Source of the DNA: an uncultured Candidatus Rokubacteria bacterium
GTDB lineage: Bacteria; Methylomirabilota; Methylomirabilia; Rokubacteriales; DASRDR01
Assembly (NCBI GenBank): GCA_963799055.1
Contig: CAWCVP010000009.1
Span: 2,299-66,298 of the forward strand
Length of the DNA: 64,000 nucleotides
Reading direction: 5' to 3'
The first letter of the stretch is position 1; the number at the start of each line of letters is the position of its first letter. The notes under the pieces are model-generated. The model saw only the letters and a program-made list of their open reading frames with translations. It was not told the DNA's origin and did no database searches. The translations under genes were made by a program, and so were the position numbers. Positions 3,580 through 55,414 of the stretch are shown piece by piece.

Positions 3580-3607
3580 GCCGCGGGGTCGCAGCGGTTG
3601 CGCCACC

Positions 3608-29720: not shown

Positions 29721-30951
29721 ATGGCAGTGAAGTTCCCGATCTTCATGGACAGCAACTCGACCACTCCGGTCGATCCTCGGGTGCTCGAGGCGATGATCCC
29801 GTACTTCACGGAGCGGTTCGGGCATCCCGGAAGCCGCAACCACTCGTTCGGGTGGGAGGCGGAGTCCGGCATGGAGCGGGCCCGCGAGCAGCTGGCCCGG
29901 CTGATCGGGGCGCGCGACCCCAAGGAGCTGGTCTGGACCTCGGGAGGCACCGAGGCGGACAACCTCGCGATCAAGGGCGTCGTCGAGATGTACCGGGAGA
30001 AGGGCGATCACATCGTCACGGCGATGACGGAGCAGCGCGCCGTCCTCGACCCCTGCCGGCGACTCGAGAAGCAGGGCGTCGCCCGGGTGACCTATCTGCC
30101 CGTGGACGCGATGGGCGTGGTCGATCCCGAGGCGCTCCGCCAGGCCATCACCGACCGGACCGTCCTGGTCTCCATCATGCTCGCCAACAACGAGATCGGG
30201 ACCATCCAGGCGGTTTCCGGACCTGAGCCGTGTCGCGAAGGAGCGGGGCGTCCTGTTCCACACGGACGCGACCGAGGCCGTCGGCAAGATCCCGGTCGAC
30301 GTCGAGAAGATGGGCATCGATCTCCTCTCGTGCACCGCGCACAAGATCTACGGCCCCAAGGGCATCGGGGCGCTGTACGTGCGCCGGCGCAACCCGCGTG
30401 TCCGGATCGCGCCCATGATCGACGGCGGCGGCCACGAGCGCGGCGCCCGCTCCGGGACGGTTCCCGTGGCGCTGGCGGTGGGCTTCGGCCGCGCGGCCGA
30501 GATCTGCCGCGAGGTCATGCCCGAGGAGGCGACCCGGTTGGCCCGGCTCCGTGACCGGCTGCAGGACCGGATCCTGTCCTCGGTGGACGAGGCGTACCTG
30601 AACGGCCACCCCGAGCGCCGGCTGCCGCACACCCTCAACATCTCGTTCGCGTACGTCGAGGGTGAATCGATCCTGATGGGGCTCAACAAGGAAGTCGCGC
30701 TGTCGTCCGGGTCGGCCTGCACCTCGTCCACCCTCGAGCCGTCGTACGTCATCCAGGCGCTCGGCGTGGGCGCTGACCTCGCGCACTCCTCGATCCGGTA
30801 CGGCCTGCACCGGTTCACGACGGAGGACGAAGTGGACGTCGTGGCGGATCGGACGATCGACGTCGTGAAGCGGCTCCGTGAGATGTCGCCGCTCTACGAG
30901 CTGGCGAAAGAAGGCGTGGACATCAAGTCCATCCAGTGGAAGGCTGAGTAA
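29721..30951 (+). CDS. iscS: cysteine desulfurase IscS, with an apparent +1 frame break near 30220
   Basis: Track ORFs 29721..30554 and 30310..30951 join at TCCGGACC: ...MLANNEIGTIQAVS / DLSRVAKERGVLFHTDATEAVGKIPVDVEKMGIDLLSCTAHKIYGPKGIGALY...SSGSACTS...SIQWKAE. Confidence 0.9.
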
Positions 30952-35937: not shown

Positions 35938-36010
35938 CCCGAGCTTGCGGCCGCGCAGATCCTGACTCGCGACCTGCCGCTGTGTGGGCCGCTCATCGCG
36001 CGCTAACGCT

Positions 36011-36029
36011 AGCATCCGGCCGGTATGCT
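36011..36029. promoter_or_regulatory. palindrome AGCAT-CCGGCCGG-T-ATGCT in the divergent dsrE-like / nifS-like intergenic region
   Basis: 5-bp arms flanking a self-complementary CCGGCCGG core. Overlaps a TATGCT -10-like hexamer (36024..36029). Confidence 0.3.
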
Positions 36030-36100
36030 GTCAACGCGCGGAGCCCCTCCCGGGCGTTCGAGCGGACGCGAGCCGGCCGCGTCACCAGGTGAGGAACGCC

Positions 36101-37255
36101 ATGCGCCGTGTCTATCTCGATCACAATGCCTCGACGCCGGTCCATCCCGACGTCCTGACCGCGATGCTGCCCTACTTCTCGGAGCGCTTCGGCAATGCGT
36201 CGAGCATCCACGGGTTCGGGCGCGAGGCGCGCGACGCCGTCGAGGCGGCGCGGGAGTCCATTGCCGTCTTCCTCGGGGTTTCGCCGGACGAGATCGTCTT
36301 CACCTCCGGCGGGACGGAATCGGACAACCTCGCCGTCAAGGGTGTCGCGGGCGCCCGACCCGGGGGGCACATCATCACGACCCAGGTCGAGCACCACGCC
36401 GTGCTCCGGACCTGCCAGGCGCTGGAGAAGGCCGGCCACCCGGTGACGTACCTGCCGGTGGACGGCGAGGGCTTGGTGGATCCGGACGACGTGCGCCGGG
36501 CGCTGCGTGCCGACACGGCCCTCATCTCCATCCAGTCGGCCAACAGCGAGGTCGGCACCGTGATGCCCATCGCGGAGATTGGCCGGGTCGCGGCGGATCG
36601 GGGCATCCCGCTCCACGTCGACGGTGTCCAGACCGTCGGCAAGCTTCCCCTGTCGGTCCGGGACGCCGGCGTGGCGCTCCTGTCGATGTCCTCGCACAAG
36701 ATCTACGGCCCCAAGGGCATCGGCGCGCTCTACGTCCGGAAGGGCACCCGGATGGTCTCCATCCAGCACGGCGGCGACCACGAGCGTCGGCGTCGGGCGG
36801 GCACGGAGAACGTGCCGGCCATCGTCGGCTTCGGCCGGGCGGTCGAGCTTCGCGCGCGCGACATGGCGGAGGAGGCCGGGCGGGTCTCGGCGCTTCGCGA
36901 TCGGCTGTGGGACGGGGTGCGGCAGGCCGTGCCGGACGTCAGGCTGAACGGCCACCCCGCGCGGCGGCTGCCCGGCACGCTCAACATGAGCTTCCGGGGC
37001 CTCGAGGCCGAGTCCCTCATCCTGGCGCTCGATCTGAAGGGCATCGGCGTCTCGGCGGGCTCGGCCTGCACGTCGGGCAGCCTCGAGCCGTCCTACGTGA
37101 TCACCGCCATGGGCGTTCCGCCCGAGTGGTCGCTCGGCGCCGTCCGCACGTCGCTCGGGGGCGGCACGACGGTCGACGACGTCGACTACGTGCTCGAGAT
37201 CCTGCCGGCGGCCGCCCACCGGATCCGCACCCTGTCGCCCGCCGGGGCGGCCTGA
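36101..37255 (+). CDS. NifS-like class I cysteine desulfurase (second copy)
   Basis: In-frame ATG of track ORF 35984..37255: MRRVYLDHNASTPVHPDVL..., FTSGGTESDNLA, SSHKIYGPKGIGALY, SAGSACTSGSLEPS. Confidence 0.9.
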   Translation: MRRVYLDHNASTPVHPDVLTAMLPYFSERFGNASSIHGFGREARDAVEAARESIAVFLGVSPDEIVFTSGGTESDNLAVKGVAGARPGGHIITTQVEHHAVLRTCQALEKAGHPVTYLPVDGEGLVDPDDVRRALRADTALISIQSANSEVGTVMPIAEIGRVAADRGIPLHVDGVQTVGKLPLSVRDAGVALLSMSSHKIYGPKGIGALYVRKGTRMVSIQHGGDHERRRRAGTENVPAIVGFGRAVELRARDMAEEAGRVSALRDRLWDGVRQAVPDVRLNGHPARRLPGTLNMSFRGLEAESLILALDLKGIGVSAGSACTSGSLEPSYVITAMGVPPEWSLGAVRTSLGGGTTVDDVDYVLEILPAAAHRIRTLSPAGAA

Positions 37256-46315: not shown

Positions 46316-47072
46316 ATGGAACGGCCGATCGCCTACGACAAGCTGGCGCGGGAGGACCGGTTCGTCCGGATGCGCGCCCGCCGGGTAGGGGAGCTGCAGA
46401 GCGGAGCAGGGCTTGCCGCTCATGCCCGACCTCTCGTCGACCGAGTCGATCCGGGAGCGCGTCCACGGGATCCTCGTGGGCGAGCTCCAGGCGATGGAAG
46501 GCGCCGGCCGCACGGTCTACGACTTCCCGGACGCGCCGTGGGAGTTCACGATGGACATGGCGCGCCAGACCTGGGACGAGTCGCGCCACGTCGAGGTCTT
46601 CAGCCGCCTGCTCGAGCATCTCGGCGGCTACATCGGGGAGTTCCCGGAGACGACGATCCTCTGGCGCTGCGCCTGCGCGGAGGACGCCGCCGCGCGGGTG
46701 GCGGGCGTGAACCGGGGGCTCGAGGGGCTGGCCTGCGACGTGTTCGTCCAGCTGGTCGAGATCGCCCGGCGCCTGCCGGACCCGACGATCGCCCAGGCGG
46801 TCGACTACGTGCTGGCCGACGAGATCACGCACGTGCGCATGGGCTCCTACTGGCTCAACAAGCTGACGGAGGGCGATCCGGAGCGACGCCAGCGCGCCGT
46901 CGAGTTCCAGGAGACCATCGACGATCGGTTCAATCTCGGCGGCATGCGCCGGGAGGGACCCGCCGACCAGGTGCCGATCGCGATCGCGACCGAGTACCGG
47001 AAGCTCGCGGGCTTCACCGACGAGGAGATCGCGCGGCTCGTCAAGAGCACGCAGCGCAGCCCGGTCTACTGA
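46316..47072 (+). CDS. DUF455 ferritin-like (putative di-iron) protein, with a +1 frame break near 46411
   Basis: MERPIAYDKLAREDRFVRMRARRVGELQSGAG (ATG 46316 frame) joins track ORF 46413..47072. Two ExxH motifs (DESRHVEVF, ADEITHVRMG). Confidence 0.7.
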
Positions 47073-47075
47073 GCC

Positions 47076-47681
47076 GTGACCGGAGGCGCATCCCCGCCCG
47101 CCGACTCGCCCAGCCGGGAGCTGGCCGGGCACCTTGGTGTCGAGGCCACCGCCCGTCAGGTGCGCCACTACCGCTACGCCGAGGAGCGGATGATGCGCGT
47201 GATGGCGGGGTGGATCGCGCTCACCCCCGAGATTCCCGCCAAGCTCCTGCTGGGCCGGCAGGTGTGGGACTGCGCGCAGCACGCGGATCTCTGGGGCAAG
47301 CGCCTGCCCGAGCTGCGTGCGCCCGGGCAGGTCTCCGAGCCCTCGGGGCCCGGGTTCGTCCGGTTCCTGGACGCGCTGGAGTCGCGCGAGGCCTGGGGCG
47401 AGACCATCGAGCGGCTGACCGGCGTCTACCGGGTCCTGAAGCCGCACCTGGTCTCCGCATACGACGCCCACCTCGGCCGGACCAACTCGGTGTACGAGCC
47501 GCCCACCCGGCGGATCCTGGAGCGCTGCCTCGGCGACGAGCGCCGCCACCTGGCCGAGGGCGCGGCCGTCCTCGAGTCCCTCGCCCGCACGCCGGCCGAG
47601 CGGGCGCGCCTCACGGCCTGGGAGCGCGAGCTGCGAGGGATGCTCGACGCCCACGGCGGGGTGACCGGGGGAGGGGGATGA
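47076..47681 (+). CDS. second ferritin-like four-helix-bundle protein (putative metal-binding)
   Basis: Track ORF 201 aa, GTG start 4 nt after the previous stop. YAEERMMRV, WDCAQHADLW, GDERRHLAEG (ExxH). Confidence 0.55.
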   Translation: MTGGASPPADSPSRELAGHLGVEATARQVRHYRYAEERMMRVMAGWIALTPEIPAKLLLGRQVWDCAQHADLWGKRLPELRAPGQVSEPSGPGFVRFLDALESREAWGETIERLTGVYRVLKPHLVSAYDAHLGRTNSVYEPPTRRILERCLGDERRHLAEGAAVLESLARTPAERARLTAWERELRGMLDAHGGVTGGGG

Positions 47682-52808: not shown

Positions 52809-54083
52809 GTGTCCCATCCCGTCGGCGTCGAGGAAGCGATCGGGCGACTCGACCCGGGCATGCGGGTCCTGCTGCCGCCGGGCTGCGCGGAGCCGACGCC
52901 GCTGATCACCGAGATCCTGCGCCAGGCGGACCGGCTGCGGCCGCTCACGCTCATGGGCGGCCTCCATCTCGGCGGGCACCCCTTCTGCGCGCCGGAGTAC
53001 GACGGGCGTCTCCGATGGGTGACCTTCCACGCCATGCCCGGGCTGGGGGACGCCCTGGCGCGAGGTCAAGCGGAGTTCATCCCGCTCCGGTACTTCGACG
53101 CCCCGCGGGCGTTCGGCGCCGGCGGGCCGTGGTCGGCCGATGCGGTCCTCGTGCAGACGGCACCTCCGGATCCTGCCGGCCGGCTCTCCCTGGGCGTGTC
53201 GACCAGCTATCCCTTGCCGGTCGCGCGCCAGGCGCCTCTCGTGATCGCCGAGGTCAACCACCGCATGCCCCGCACCCTCGGGGACAGCACGATCGCCCTC
53301 GACCGCGTCGCCGCCTGGATCGAGACCGACCGCCCCCTGGTCCCGTACCCGTCGCCCGGGGTGGGGGAGGTGGAGGAGCGAATCGCCGCCCACGTCGCCG
53401 AGATCGTTCCCGACGGGGCGACCCTGCAGGTGGGCGTCGGGGCCGTGCCCGAGGCGATCGTTTCGGGGCTCGGCGGCCACCGGGACCTGGGCGTCCATTC
53501 ACTCCTGGTCGACGCGATGCTGCCCCTCCTCGAGCAGGGCGTCATCACGGGGACGCGAAACCGCCGGCATCCGGGCTGCCTCGACCTCGGCGAGATCATG
53601 GGCACCGAGCCCCTGTTCCGCTGGGCGCACGAGAACGCGCGGGTCTACATGGAGCCCTCGACCGTCATCCACGATCCGGTGGTGGTGGCGGGGCTCGATC
53701 GCTTCGTGTCGGTCAACTCGGCGATCGAGATCGACCTGACGGGCCAGGTGAACGCCGAGGCGCTCGGGCCGCGGCAGATCTCGGGAATCGGCGGTCAGTT
53801 CGACTTCGTGGCGGGGGCGGCTCTGGGCGGGGGGCGGTCCGTCATCGCGCTGCCGTCGACCGGGCGGCGGGGAGAGGTCTCGCGCATCGTCGCGCGCCTC
53901 GGAGCCGGCACGCCGGTCACGACGCCGCGCCACCTCGTCGACTGCGTCGTGACCGAGTTCGCCCGCGCCGAGCTACGGGGGCTCAGCGATATCCAGCGCG
54001 CCCGGGAGCTGACCCGCATCGCCCACCCTCGCTTCCGAGAGGGGCTCGAGCGCGACTGGCGAGCCCGGCATCAGGCCTTTTGA
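52809..54083 (+). CDS. acetyl-CoA hydrolase/transferase-family protein (4-hydroxybutyrate CoA-transferase-like)
   Basis: Track ORF 424 aa, GTG start: ...VNSAIEIDLTGQVNAE...SGIGGQFDFVAGA... Confidence 0.85.
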   Translation: MSHPVGVEEAIGRLDPGMRVLLPPGCAEPTPLITEILRQADRLRPLTLMGGLHLGGHPFCAPEYDGRLRWVTFHAMPGLGDALARGQAEFIPLRYFDAPRAFGAGGPWSADAVLVQTAPPDPAGRLSLGVSTSYPLPVARQAPLVIAEVNHRMPRTLGDSTIALDRVAAWIETDRPLVPYPSPGVGEVEERIAAHVAEIVPDGATLQVGVGAVPEAIVSGLGGHRDLGVHSLLVDAMLPLLEQGVITGTRNRRHPGCLDLGEIMGTEPLFRWAHENARVYMEPSTVIHDPVVVAGLDRFVSVNSAIEIDLTGQVNAEALGPRQISGIGGQFDFVAGAALGGGRSVIALPSTGRRGEVSRIVARLGAGTPVTTPRHLVDCVVTEFARAELRGLSDIQRARELTRIAHPRFREGLERDWRARHQAF

Positions 54084-54301
54084 TGGCTCCGGATCTGAGC
54101 GAAGATCTCCTCGTTCGTGGGGAAGCGATACGTCTCGTCCTTCGAGTAGATGCGCTTGCCGTCGAGCACGACGTCGAACACCCCGGCGTGCCCGCCCTGG
54201 AGACTAGCGGTGACTCCGAACTCCTGCTTGATGGCGGCCTGCAGACTGGAGGCCTGGGGGTAGTAGTCTCATTCGGTGCAGTAGGTGATCTGGATGTTCA
54301 T
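54071..54301 (-). CDS. SelW/Rdx-family (SelW-like) protein with in-frame TGA at 54269..54271: candidate selenoprotein (CxxU)
   Basis: AGGAGG SD 7 nt before ATG 54301. Translation: MNIQITYCTE-U-DYYPQASSLQAAIKQEFGVTASLQGGHAGVFDVVLDGKRIYSKDETYRFPTNEEIFAQIRSHQKA. GC3-rich codons continue after the TGA. Both halves are below the ORF-track length cutoff. Confidence 0.7.
54236..54254 (-). other. candidate bacterial SECIS-like hairpin downstream of the in-frame UGA
   Basis: mRNA GGCCU-CCAGUCUGC-AGGCC starts 17 nt after the UGA. 5-bp stem with GU in the 9-nt loop. Weak on its own. Confidence 0.3.
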
Positions 54302-54448
54302 CGGTGTCCTCCTTTCCGAGTGAGTGTCCGTCGATCGGACCATTCGGATGATACCAGACCGCCGCGCCCGCGGCCGTGAATCGTGCCGGCCCGCGGCGGA
54401 AGTCAGACGGGCAGGGGAGCCGGAGAGCGTCATGAGCGGGGAGGCACA

Positions 54449-55414
54449 GTGGCCAGGGTCTGCGTGATCGGCAGCTCGAACCTCGACTTCACCGTGTCGG
54501 TGCCCCGGCTTCCCGGCGTCGGCGAGACCGTGTCCGGCGGGACGCTGGCGACGTCGCCCGGTGGCAAGGGCGCGAACCAGGCTGTCGCCGCGCGACGGCT
54601 CGGCGCGGAGGTCAGCTTCGTCACCTTGCTGGGGGCCGACCCCATGGGGGACCGGCTCGCGGCGGTGCTGGCCGAGGAGGGTCTGCCGTCAGAGCCGATC
54701 GGACGCACGCAGGAGACGGCGACCGGTGTGGCCCTGATCTCGGTGGATCCGGAGGGGCGCAACCAGATCGCGGTCGCGCCGGGCGCGAACCACCAGCTGA
54801 CAGTCGAACGCGTCCGTACTCATGCCGGCCTGCTGGCCTGGGCAGACGTCGTGCTCCTCCAACTAGAAACCCCGATCGATACGGTGCGCTGGGCGCTCGC
54901 GGAGGCCAGGCGCCTCGGCAAGCGCACCGTGCTCAATCCGGCCCCCGCGCGCGTGCTGCCGCTTCCTGCCGATCTCTTGCCGCTGGTAGACTACCTGACA
55001 CCGAACGAGGTCGAGGCGGGGCTCCTGACCGATCGCGTGGTGCGAAGCCTGGACGAAGCGGAGGAGGCGGCCCGCCTGCTCGTCGCTCGGGGCGTCTCGA
55101 CCGTGGTCGTGACGATGGGCGCGGTGGGGGCGGTGGCGGTCAGCGCATCAGGCGCCCTCCGGGTGCCGGCCTTTCCGGTCGAGTCGATCGACACGGTGGG
55201 GGCCGGCGATGCCTTCAGCGGCGGGCTCGCCGCGTGCCTGGCCGCCGGGGCGCCTGTCGAGGATGCGCTCGTCGTGGCCAGCGCGGCGGGAGGTCTGACG
55301 TGCACGCGGCGCGGAGCCGTCGAGGCTCTGCCCACGCGAGAAGAGGTCGACCGGCTGATGGATCGCCACGATCGACGGCCGAGCTCGGTTCGGGGAACGG
55401 AGTGGACCCGATGA
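54449..55414 (+). CDS. rbsK: ribokinase (PfkB family)
   Basis: GTG after GGGGAGG inside track ORF 54383..55414: VARVCVIGSSNLDF...GGKGANQAVAA...DTVGAGDAFSGG. Confidence 0.85.
   Translation: MARVCVIGSSNLDFTVSVPRLPGVGETVSGGTLATSPGGKGANQAVAARRLGAEVSFVTLLGADPMGDRLAAVLAEEGLPSEPIGRTQETATGVALISVDPEGRNQIAVAPGANHQLTVERVRTHAGLLAWADVVLLQLETPIDTVRWALAEARRLGKRTVLNPAPARVLPLPADLLPLVDYLTPNEVEAGLLTDRVVRSLDEAEEAARLLVARGVSTVVVTMGAVGAVAVSASGALRVPAFPVESIDTVGAGDAFSGGLAACLAAGAPVEDALVVASAAGGLTCTRRGAVEALPTREEVDRLMDRHDRRPSSVRGTEWTR

Follow-up and report, generated by a model that had tools for sequence, protein, structure and literature searches.

An in-frame TGA in a putative SelW-like (Rdx) selenoprotein gene of a Rokubacteria-type bacterium

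A short reading frame on the minus strand of a contig from an uncultured Candidatus Rokubacteria bacterium (GenBank assembly GCA_963799055.1, contig CAWCVP010000009.1, positions 2,299 to 66,298) is interrupted by a TGA triplet soon after its start. Below, this 64,000-nucleotide (nt) stretch, which has a GC content of 71%, is referred to as the window, and its own numbering is used. The question raised by the locus, 54071–54301, is whether the TGA ends translation or is read as selenocysteine (Sec), as was proposed in an initial annotation made from the letters alone. Our analysis indicates that, in this Rokubacteria-type bacterium, the region very probably codes for a SelW-like (Rdx) selenoprotein with 76 residues. 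The gene structure, the family and fold membership, the presence of the TGA throughout the lineage, and a constrained hairpin that fits the consensus of the selenocysteine insertion sequence (SECIS) are established.

The complete putative selenoprotein coding sequence, of the Rdx/SelW-like family, comprises 76 codons and a stop as read by direct translation (54071–54301, minus strand). The ATG at 54299–54301 is followed by AAC ATC CAG ATC ACC TAC TGC ACC GAA and then by the in-frame TGA at 54269–54271, the putative codon for Sec at residue 11. A further 65 sense codons separate this triplet from the terminal TGA at 54071–54073, the true stop, which has no hairpin 3′ of it. The conceptual translation is MNIQITYCTE-U-DYYPQASSLQAAIK...HQKA. 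The first residue of the C-T-E-U redox motif, Cys8, is encoded by TGC at 54278–54280. All of this agrees with the layout given in the initial annotation, from the start codon to the stop. The strong Shine-Dalgarno (SD) sequence claimed upstream of the ATG was also found (AGGAGG, 54308–54313, minus strand); its spacer to the A of the ATG measures 6 nt instead of 7 nt, a trivial difference.

Since the in-frame TGA is taken as a stop by gene finders, they skip or truncate the gene, both in the window and in the 80 Rokubacteria-type genomes surveyed below. In the window, conventional open reading frame (ORF) finding returns two fragments only: 54 amino acids (aa) before the TGA, counted from an upstream in-frame ATG at 54433, and 36 aa after it, counted from the first start codon (GTG). 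Neither half thus reaches the 60-aa cutoff, and the expectation that standard gene calling would miss the gene was borne out. Because the same gene ends in TGA, this triplet is not a general sense codon in the organism. The gene is real, and its in-frame TGA is most likely translated as Sec.

Orthologs of the gene were collected by scanning one genome per species from GTDB. The scan yielded 80 loci, and 91 loci were analyzed in total; per-codon statistics were calculated over 83 distinct genes. Of the 80 census loci, 73 are labeled Candidatus Rokubacteria, Rokuibacteriota, or Methylomirabilota; five carry the label “uncultured bacterium,” one “Binatia,” and one “Acidoferrum.” The window species lies outside this representative set, since its nearest relative among the loci (L018) is only ~82% identical to it in DNA over 20 kilobases (kb). 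When three proteins of the window were looked up by exact match, no record was found for any of them. All 80 species genomes, and 90 of the 91 loci, have TGA as the codon at the redox position, and TGC or TGT occurs in none of them. The annotation had left it to orthologs to show Cys or Sec at this position, and the answer is uniform: no Cys codon was found. Conservation of the triplet extends over orthologs whose protein identity to the window protein falls to 55%. The downstream frame (64 to 65 codons) is open in all of them, with an RFP motif at a fixed offset, and the gene end is conserved in the closest ones. The start codon is kept as well (ATG in 92%, GTG in the remainder), as is the SD sequence, present as GAGGAGG-type sites upstream of the start. 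Cys8 is invariant in 83/83 distinct genes, with its codon varying between TGC and TGT. Other residues are likewise conserved with synonymous codon variation on both sides of the TGA: I5, Y7, and E10 before it, and G40, V44, T57, R59, F60, and P61 after it.

These data bear on the possibility that the locus is a pseudogene, or that the TGA is a sequencing or assembly error or a mutation of a TGC/TGT Cys codon. Some defects in the assembly or the genome do exist, since at least one gene of the window, iscS, appears frameshifted (at ~30.2 to 30.3 kb), and one ortholog, L010, has TTA at the Sec position. However, the 80 species-level assemblies with TGA are independent and come from many projects and sequencing technologies, and the downstream frame is conserved in all of them. 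A sequencing error was excluded because independent assemblies from many projects carry the TGA, and the probability that we assign to any form of this explanation is negligible. The L010 locus itself is a 637–base pair (bp) singleton metagenome contig in which the Sec TGA is replaced, at 412–414, by TTA (Leu), one base away; its SECIS hairpin is intact, and a near-identical protein is encoded with TGA in L033. The TTA probably reflects faulty assembly or a loss-of-function allele of recent origin.

A search of 5.8 billion proteins returned 42 relatives, nearly all of which are 55- to 62-aa calls that start just after the TGA position. Many of them are named “selT/selW/selH-like putative selenoprotein” (Joint Genome Institute). 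Three entries among the 42 are full length, two with Trp and one with Leu at the Sec position. For the two Trp entries (P0025 and P0026, from L007 and L011), the DNA has TGA, and we infer that the Trp arises from a code-4-type gene model on short contigs.

The many truncated calls could be taken at face value: translation would truly end at the TGA, codons 1 to 10 would specify a short leader peptide or stay untranslated, and a 57-aa product would be made from an internal TTG at Leu20. Most database entries are indeed 57-aa calls beginning with LQAAIK or MQAAIK, and codon 20 is TTG in 78% of orthologs. In 22% of species, including that of the window, codon 20 is, however, CTG and thus no start codon, and the longest conventional ORF after the TGA in the window has only the 36 aa given above. 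The SD sequence stands before codon 1, not before codon 20. Codons 1 to 10 and 12 to 19 are conserved in frame (I5, Y7, C8, E10, Y13, and P15), and both the Pfam domain and the predicted fold described below require strand 1 (residues 3 to 8) and the redox motif. We consider this explanation, with the TGA as a stop, extremely improbable.

Membership in the Rdx family, one of the main points of the initial annotation, was assessed by profile searches with the product, in which Cys was substituted for the TGA. The product matched the Pfam Rdx family PF10262 with 64.2 bits against a cutoff of 22.6 (E = 1.3e-17). The match is a single domain that covers residues 2 to 71 of 76 and profile positions 1 to 73 of 74, and it thus lies on both sides of the TGA. 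The TIGR02174 “CXXU_selWTH” profile gave 54.2 bits against a cutoff of 34.2. The score with NF041051 (SelTWH_Campy) fell short of the equivalog cutoff, 76.8 versus 88 bits; the window protein is related to this Campylobacter-type subfamily but falls outside it. A sequence search of the PDB produced the Rdx relatives 2ljk, 2oka, 2fa8, 3dex, 2obk, 2ojl, 2npb, and 2p0g, along with two weak unrelated chains (E > 0.3). In the alignments, C8 and U11 of the query fall on the CxxC motif of 2oka and 2fa8. The TGA was thus correctly placed at the second redox position, and it also aligns with the second Cys of the CxxC motif in the distant full-length homologs P0059, P0061, P0065, P0073, and P0053.

The AlphaFold2 model of the full-length ortholog P0025 has a predicted local distance difference test score of 97.1. 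Its elements follow in the order strand 3–8, redox-motif loop, helix 14–28, three strands, and a C-terminal helix, so that the layout anticipated in the annotation (strand, CxxU, helix) is reproduced, with C8-T-E-U11 placed between strand 1 and helix 1. When the model was compared to the PDB with Foldseek, bacterial SelW-related structures ranked at the top, with TM scores of 0.8 to 0.9 and root mean square deviations of 1.1 to 1.7 Å. All 21 top matches were bacterial SelW-related or Rdx chains, and they were followed by MIEN1, SelW, and thioredoxins. As judged from the profile matches and the modeled ortholog, the window gene belongs to the SelW/Rdx family, with a predicted small thioredoxin-like fold of the beta-alpha-beta-beta-beta-alpha type.

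SelW-like CxxU proteins have been known as bacterial selenoproteins since 2005 (Zhang, Fomenko & Gladyshev; PMC1088965). In the Sargasso Sea they were the most abundant selenoprotein family, represented by 48 Sec and 7 Cys forms (PMC1088965), and a “SELENOW-like protein, PF10262, CxxU” is listed in a selenoprotein catalogue (PMC13188914). The window gene shares with them (PMC1088965, PMC13188914, and TIGR02174) the domain, the size of ~75 aa, the Sec at the second position, and a SECIS in the coding region directly 3′ of the UGA; the known members, too, are systematically truncated or missed by gene finders. The hosts differ: the known proteins come from marine plankton or Campylobacter, and the window gene comes from a soil/groundwater Rokubacteria-type lineage. 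This lineage differs further in that its SECIS hardly varies and that a Cys form was seen in none of 80 species.

Solved Rdx proteins of the Cys type (2fa8, Agrobacterium Atu0228; 2oka, Pseudomonas aeruginosa; 2obk, P. fluorescens; 2ojl, Bordetella; 2p0g, Vibrio; 3dex, Streptomyces) have the same fold, with the redox motif in the same place. Unlike the window gene, they have CxxC (YCTQCNW in 2fa8 and YCTQCQW in 2oka) and neither a UGA nor a SECIS; they are ~25 to 30 residues longer than the window protein and 19 to 30% identical to it. Mammalian SelW (2npb) and its Cys paralog MIEN1 (2ljk), the latter being the best PDB sequence match (E = 1.4e-5), are also Rdx proteins that carry CxxU or CxxC in the loop between strand 1 and helix 1, like the window protein. 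The decoding signals are, in contrast, different, since eukaryotic SelW relies on a SECIS in the 3′ untranslated region with a kink-turn core and on SBP2/eEFSec, whereas the signal in the window gene is of the bacterial kind, a small hairpin within the coding region.

Genuine CxxC forms appeared only at ~39 to 47% identity in a search of 1.84 billion cluster representatives (P0059, P0061, P0065, P0073, P0172, P0187, and P0053), and the QASSLQA stretch is relaxed in these distant homologs. Many other matches in the same search are truncated or “CxxW,” which suggests Sec forms in other lineages; the “CxxW” Rdx entries are probably hidden selenoproteins. Two distant full-length homologs, P0086 and P0116, read “YWGMWNY,” with W at both redox positions. 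From their sequences, they could be candidate UxxU (double-Sec) Rdx forms under code 4.

A TGA that is read as Sec in bacteria would be expected to be followed by a SECIS, and a small hairpin had been noted downstream. The putative bacterial SECIS, GGCCU-C-C[AGUCU]G-C-AGGCC, lies on the minus strand at exactly 54236–54254 (19 nt, GGCCUCCAGUCUGCAGGCC), where it had been annotated. Its start is separated from the TGA by 14 nt, not by the 17 nt that had been stated. The apical loop occupies 54243–54247, with its G at 54246 and its U at 54245. Even when two mismatches were allowed, the hairpin was unique in the window, and no chance matches are expected. With positions (columns) counted from the U of UGA, the stem, hereafter model A, is formed by G18-C36, G19-C35, C20-G34, C21-G33, U22-A32, a C23/C31 mismatch, and C24-G30, and the loop by A25-G26-U27-Y28-U29.

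The published consensus for bacterial SECIS elements (bSECIS; PMC13188914, Fig. 2A) comprises an apical loop of 3 to 9 nt, an upper stem of 4 to 16 bp, and a distance of 16 to 37 nt from the UGA to the loop. It further includes a G in the first two loop positions, typically within N1-G-[G/U]-N-N2, and a minimum free energy of −7.5 kcal/mol or below. Model A has a 5-nt loop, AGUCU, with G in second position and with A and U pairable as N1 and N2, a stem of 6 bp plus the single C-C mismatch, a UGA-to-loop distance of 21 nt, and an energy of −8.1 to −8.5 kcal/mol in context. The annotation of the hairpin as a bacterial SECIS is thus in line with the published description when flanking bases are included.

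Nucleotide-level conservation of the hairpin is strong. The exact motif is present in 86 of the 91 loci, and codons 16 to 22 (CAG GCC UCC AGU YUG CAG GCC) show no synonymous change in the 83 distinct genes. GCC is used for Ala17 and UCC for Ser18 in 83/83, and the rare AGU for Ser19 in 82/82. Elsewhere in the gene, third-position entropy reaches 1.3 to 1.6 bits at the four-fold sites of Ala32, Gly37, Gly40, and Thr57. The rate of synonymous substitution (dS) is 0.09 in the hairpin codons versus 0.59 to 0.72 in the flanks, i.e., ~7-fold lower. The constrained block, columns 18 to 36, coincides with the hairpin, and the third positions at columns 15 and 39 vary freely. As judged from these alignments, the hairpin is a putative SECIS under strong nucleotide-level constraint.

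In four orthologs (L047, L058, L073, and L085), Ala22 is changed to Glu (GCC to GAG), which removes two basal pairs of model A (columns 34 to 39, alignment A2). In these variants, the 5′ arm (columns 18 to 24) pairs perfectly with columns 33 to 39, giving a stem of 7 bp and −15.3 kcal/mol, or of 6 bp in L058. The energies of the register-shifted stems range from −11.9 to −15.3 kcal/mol, and the loop still begins with AGU. The four variants probably represent a single evolutionary event.

The same stretch of RNA can fold in another way, and one may keep the selenoprotein interpretation while assigning the function to this alternative hairpin (model B: C13-G34, C14-G33, C16-G30, A17-U29, G18-Y28, G19-U27, and C20-G26, with the loop CUCCA). 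As a competing fold, model B detracts from model A: its pairs are present in 100% of 80 sequences, its sole variable stem position changes compatibly (G-U in 61 sequences, G-C in 18, and A-U in one), and RNAalifold favors it. However, model B is weaker, −2.5 to −5.2 versus −8.1 to −8.5 kcal/mol for model A, and its apical loop has no G and so fails the bSECIS consensus. It leaves unexplained the invariant third position of Ala22 (C36) and the invariant U27; AGC would convert the G19-U27 pair of model B to G-C, yet AGC never occurs. Its C16-G30 pair is lost in L052, where residue 16 is Lys. A model A–type stem is re-formed by all four Glu22 variants, whereas only two of them can extend model B. 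We consider it unlikely that model B is the functional element.

The reference element of this type in bacteria is the SECIS of Escherichia coli fdhF, where G23/U24 are located in the apical loop, G23 and the bulged U17 are described as the SelB contacts, and the hairpin begins 11 nt from the UGA (PMC8659212). The two elements are alike in being small hairpins just 3′ of the UGA whose apical loop has the G-U that is essential to the reference element (G23/U24 in fdhF, G26/U27 here). They differ in the start of the hairpin, 14 nt after the UGA in the window gene versus 11 nt in fdhF; in the C-C mismatch, which takes the place of the bulged U17; and in the lower stem reaching back to the UGA, which, unlike in fdhF, is not evident in the window gene. 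We take the loop context AGUCUGCA to resemble AGGUCUGCA of fdhF.

By analogy with fdhF, the expression of the window gene may be pictured as follows. Translation would start at the ATG at 54301 behind the strong SD sequence, and the ribosome would reach the UGA at codon 11. The hairpin at 54236–54254, located 14 nt past the UGA, would offer its loop G-U to SelB carrying Sec-tRNA(Sec), whose binding would lead to insertion of Sec in place of termination. The next 65 codons would then be read, and the second TGA, which has no hairpin behind it, would terminate translation. In the folded protein, Cys8 and Sec11 of the C-T-E-U motif would cycle between the selenol/thiol and selenenylsulfide forms in the loop between strand 1 and helix 1. 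By analogy to its family, the protein is most likely a thiol-dependent oxidoreductase on a thioredoxin-like scaffold. What we infer in this scheme is the role of SelB and tRNA(Sec) in decoding, the redox chemistry, and the nature of the physiological substrate.

Several observations weigh against this interpretation. Components of the Sec machinery were not detected near the gene. No tRNA gene and no Rfam match, with tRNA-Sec models included, was found in the 64-kb window by ARAGORN and Rfam searches and by a permissive scan of the locus, and no SelA, SelB, or SelD was found by Pfam among the ~58 ORFs of the window. In the 91 related loci, tRNA scans gave tRNA-Arg and tRNA-Glu only and no tRNA-Sec. 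No SelD or SelA homolog was found by tblastn with E. coli probes (approximate sequences) in 1.37 megabases (Mb) made up of the 91 loci and the window. No second selenoprotein was detected in the same 1.37 Mb by a crude screen for TGA triplets flanked by a coding signal in third-position GC and for cross-species alignments that span a TGA. Every candidate that this screen raised was rejected as an antisense shadow of a real gene, as a run from the CoA-transferase stop into the Rdx antisense strand, or as a pair of adjacent genes in the same frame, such as the DUF455 gene and the next ORF at 47072/47076.

Other adverse points concern the hairpin, the frame, and the fold. The bare 19-mer has an energy of −7.1 kcal/mol, just short of −7.5, and −8.5 kcal/mol is reached only with flanking bases. 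Folded as a single sequence, the hairpin does no better than shuffled sequences (z = −1.05 for 33 nt and +1.0 to +1.35 for 50 to 91 nt); the significance of the hairpin comes from its conservation across species, not from its folding energy. The hairpin is essentially invariant, and no pair changes on both sides, so classical covariation is lacking, as expected given that every stem base is also constrained by the codon in which it lies. The ratio of nonsynonymous to synonymous substitutions (dN/dS) is 0.35 upstream and 0.45 downstream of the TGA, but it is no test of the frame, since a +2 control frame gave the same ratio; dN/dS was therefore dropped as proof of the reading frame. Last, the fold was modeled for P0025, an ortholog of 57% identity that carries Trp in place of Sec, and not for the window protein itself.

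What is known of the phylum is in line with Sec decoding. According to PMC13188914, 63 selenoprotein genes are predicted in one metagenome-assembled genome of Methylomirabilota. Sec-type [NiFeSe] hydrogenases occur in Methylomirabilota, and selABCD are present in about 90% of Sec-type genomes, a figure that is pooled across phyla and not specific to Methylomirabilota (PMC13582414). No selenoprotein report specific to Rokubacteria was found in the limited set of papers searched; the use of Sec is known from the literature at the level of the phylum Methylomirabilota only (PMC13188914 and PMC13582414).

A SECIS-marked UGA can also be decoded by SelB with a non-canonical SelC*-type tRNA (tRNA-ReC) that inserts Cys, in which case the product would be a CxxC Rdx protein. 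According to PMC13582414, which cites Vargas-Rodriguez et al. 2018, tRNA-ReC reads UGA as Cys given a downstream SECIS and is found in ~13 to 17% of surveyed genomes, and nothing in the window distinguishes insertion of Sec from insertion of Cys. However, the tRNA-ReC–like tRNAs named in that survey are from Armatimonadota, Desulfobacterota, and JAPLJL01, not from Methylomirabilota. A plain TGC or TGT codon would be a cheaper way to encode Cys, yet none of the 80 species has one, and SelW-like proteins are a classic Sec family (PMC1088965). Decoding as Cys is thus highly improbable, and Sec remains the preferred identity of residue 11.

The surroundings of the gene are conserved. A convergent gene of the acetyl-CoA hydrolase/transferase family (52809–54083, plus strand; Pfam AcetylCoA_hyd_C, 6.9e-52) overlaps the Rdx gene at 54071–54083, which confirms the overlap of 13 nt reported for this pair. 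In 87 of 90 loci, no more than 3 kb separates the CoA-transferase gene from the Rdx gene, and in 61 of 90 the two overlap at their 3′ ends by 11 to 14 nt. On the other side, a divergent gene for a PfkB-family kinase (54383–55414, plus strand; PfkB, 7.5e-66) is adjacent in 75 of 90 loci. The 81-nt intergenic region between the two gene starts (54302–54382) presumably holds both promoters; no match to the sigma-70 consensus was found in it, and no terminator-like site was found at the locus, including between the Rdx and CoA-transferase genes. Since the neighbors are convergent or divergent and not co-directional, they say little about function. In the boldest view, the Rdx gene of this lineage would encode an obligate selenoprotein, with a SECIS frozen across a phylum-level radiation and a 3′ end interlocked with the CoA-transferase gene. 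The interlock could reflect functional or regulatory coupling, for example if selenium-dependent translation of Rdx affected the antisense-overlapping CoA-transferase, or the UGA could be read as Cys via a tRNA-ReC–type pathway; we regard this pair of ideas as a long shot.

Elsewhere, the Pfam content of the window includes Tct transporters, an isc Fe-S operon, a second cysteine desulfurase, a branched-chain amino acid ATP-binding cassette (ABC) system, a sigma-70 gene, CinA, the CoA-transferase, the PfkB kinase, fatty-acid genes, and type II secretion/pilus genes. The cysteine desulfurase gene iscS (29721–30951, plus strand) appears to be split over two frames: the ORF at 29721–30554 matches Aminotran_5 positions 1 to 158, and the ORF at 30310–30951 matches positions 190 to 370. 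This points to a frameshift near 30216–30310, which would stem from an indel in the assembly or mark a pseudogene. Downstream of the isc operon, the plus-strand gene at 35984–37255 encodes a second class-V aminotransferase, cysteine desulfurase/selenocysteine lyase–like (Aminotran_5, 1.3e-82). Enzymes of this family can mobilize selenium; nothing in the window data links this one to Sec metabolism.

In the plus-strand region at 46413–47681, the stop of a DUF455 gene (TGA, 47070–47072) is followed 3 nt later by an ORF in the same frame (GTG, 47076), and both the stop and its flanks are conserved in 13 relatives. Read-through was considered here and rejected in favor of tightly packed adjacent genes. 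At 3598–24529, genes of tripartite tricarboxylate transporters are unusually dense over ~21 kb, with four TctA, of which one is fused to TctB, and three TctC-family receptors, interspersed with genes of the amidohydrolase, LigB-type dioxygenase, and class II aldolase types. This content suggests an aromatic or organic-acid catabolic island.

The window gene is a correct and well-supported new case of the already known SelW-like CxxU selenoproteins. It leaves selenoprotein biology as known unaltered, and public pipelines already give the truncated Rokubacteria entries the family name. What it adds is that the gene is missed or mis-modeled throughout a large uncultured soil/groundwater lineage. 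Public entries take three forms: proteins of 57 to 62 aa that are truncated at the N terminus and have no active site; full-length proteins with a spurious Trp at the Sec position, from code-4-type calls on short contigs; or, as expected for the window, nothing at all. The corrected gene model restores the catalytic CxxU motif. Of further interest are the retention of Sec in 80/80 species without a Cys form and an almost frozen SECIS, including the register-shift variant that preserves the hairpin. The 19-nt hairpin could seed searches for further selenoprotein genes in a lineage whose selenoproteomes are reported to be very large. Since none of the 80 species genomes lacks the TGA or its hairpin, the gene can conveniently serve to indicate dependence on selenium and on the Sec-decoding machinery.

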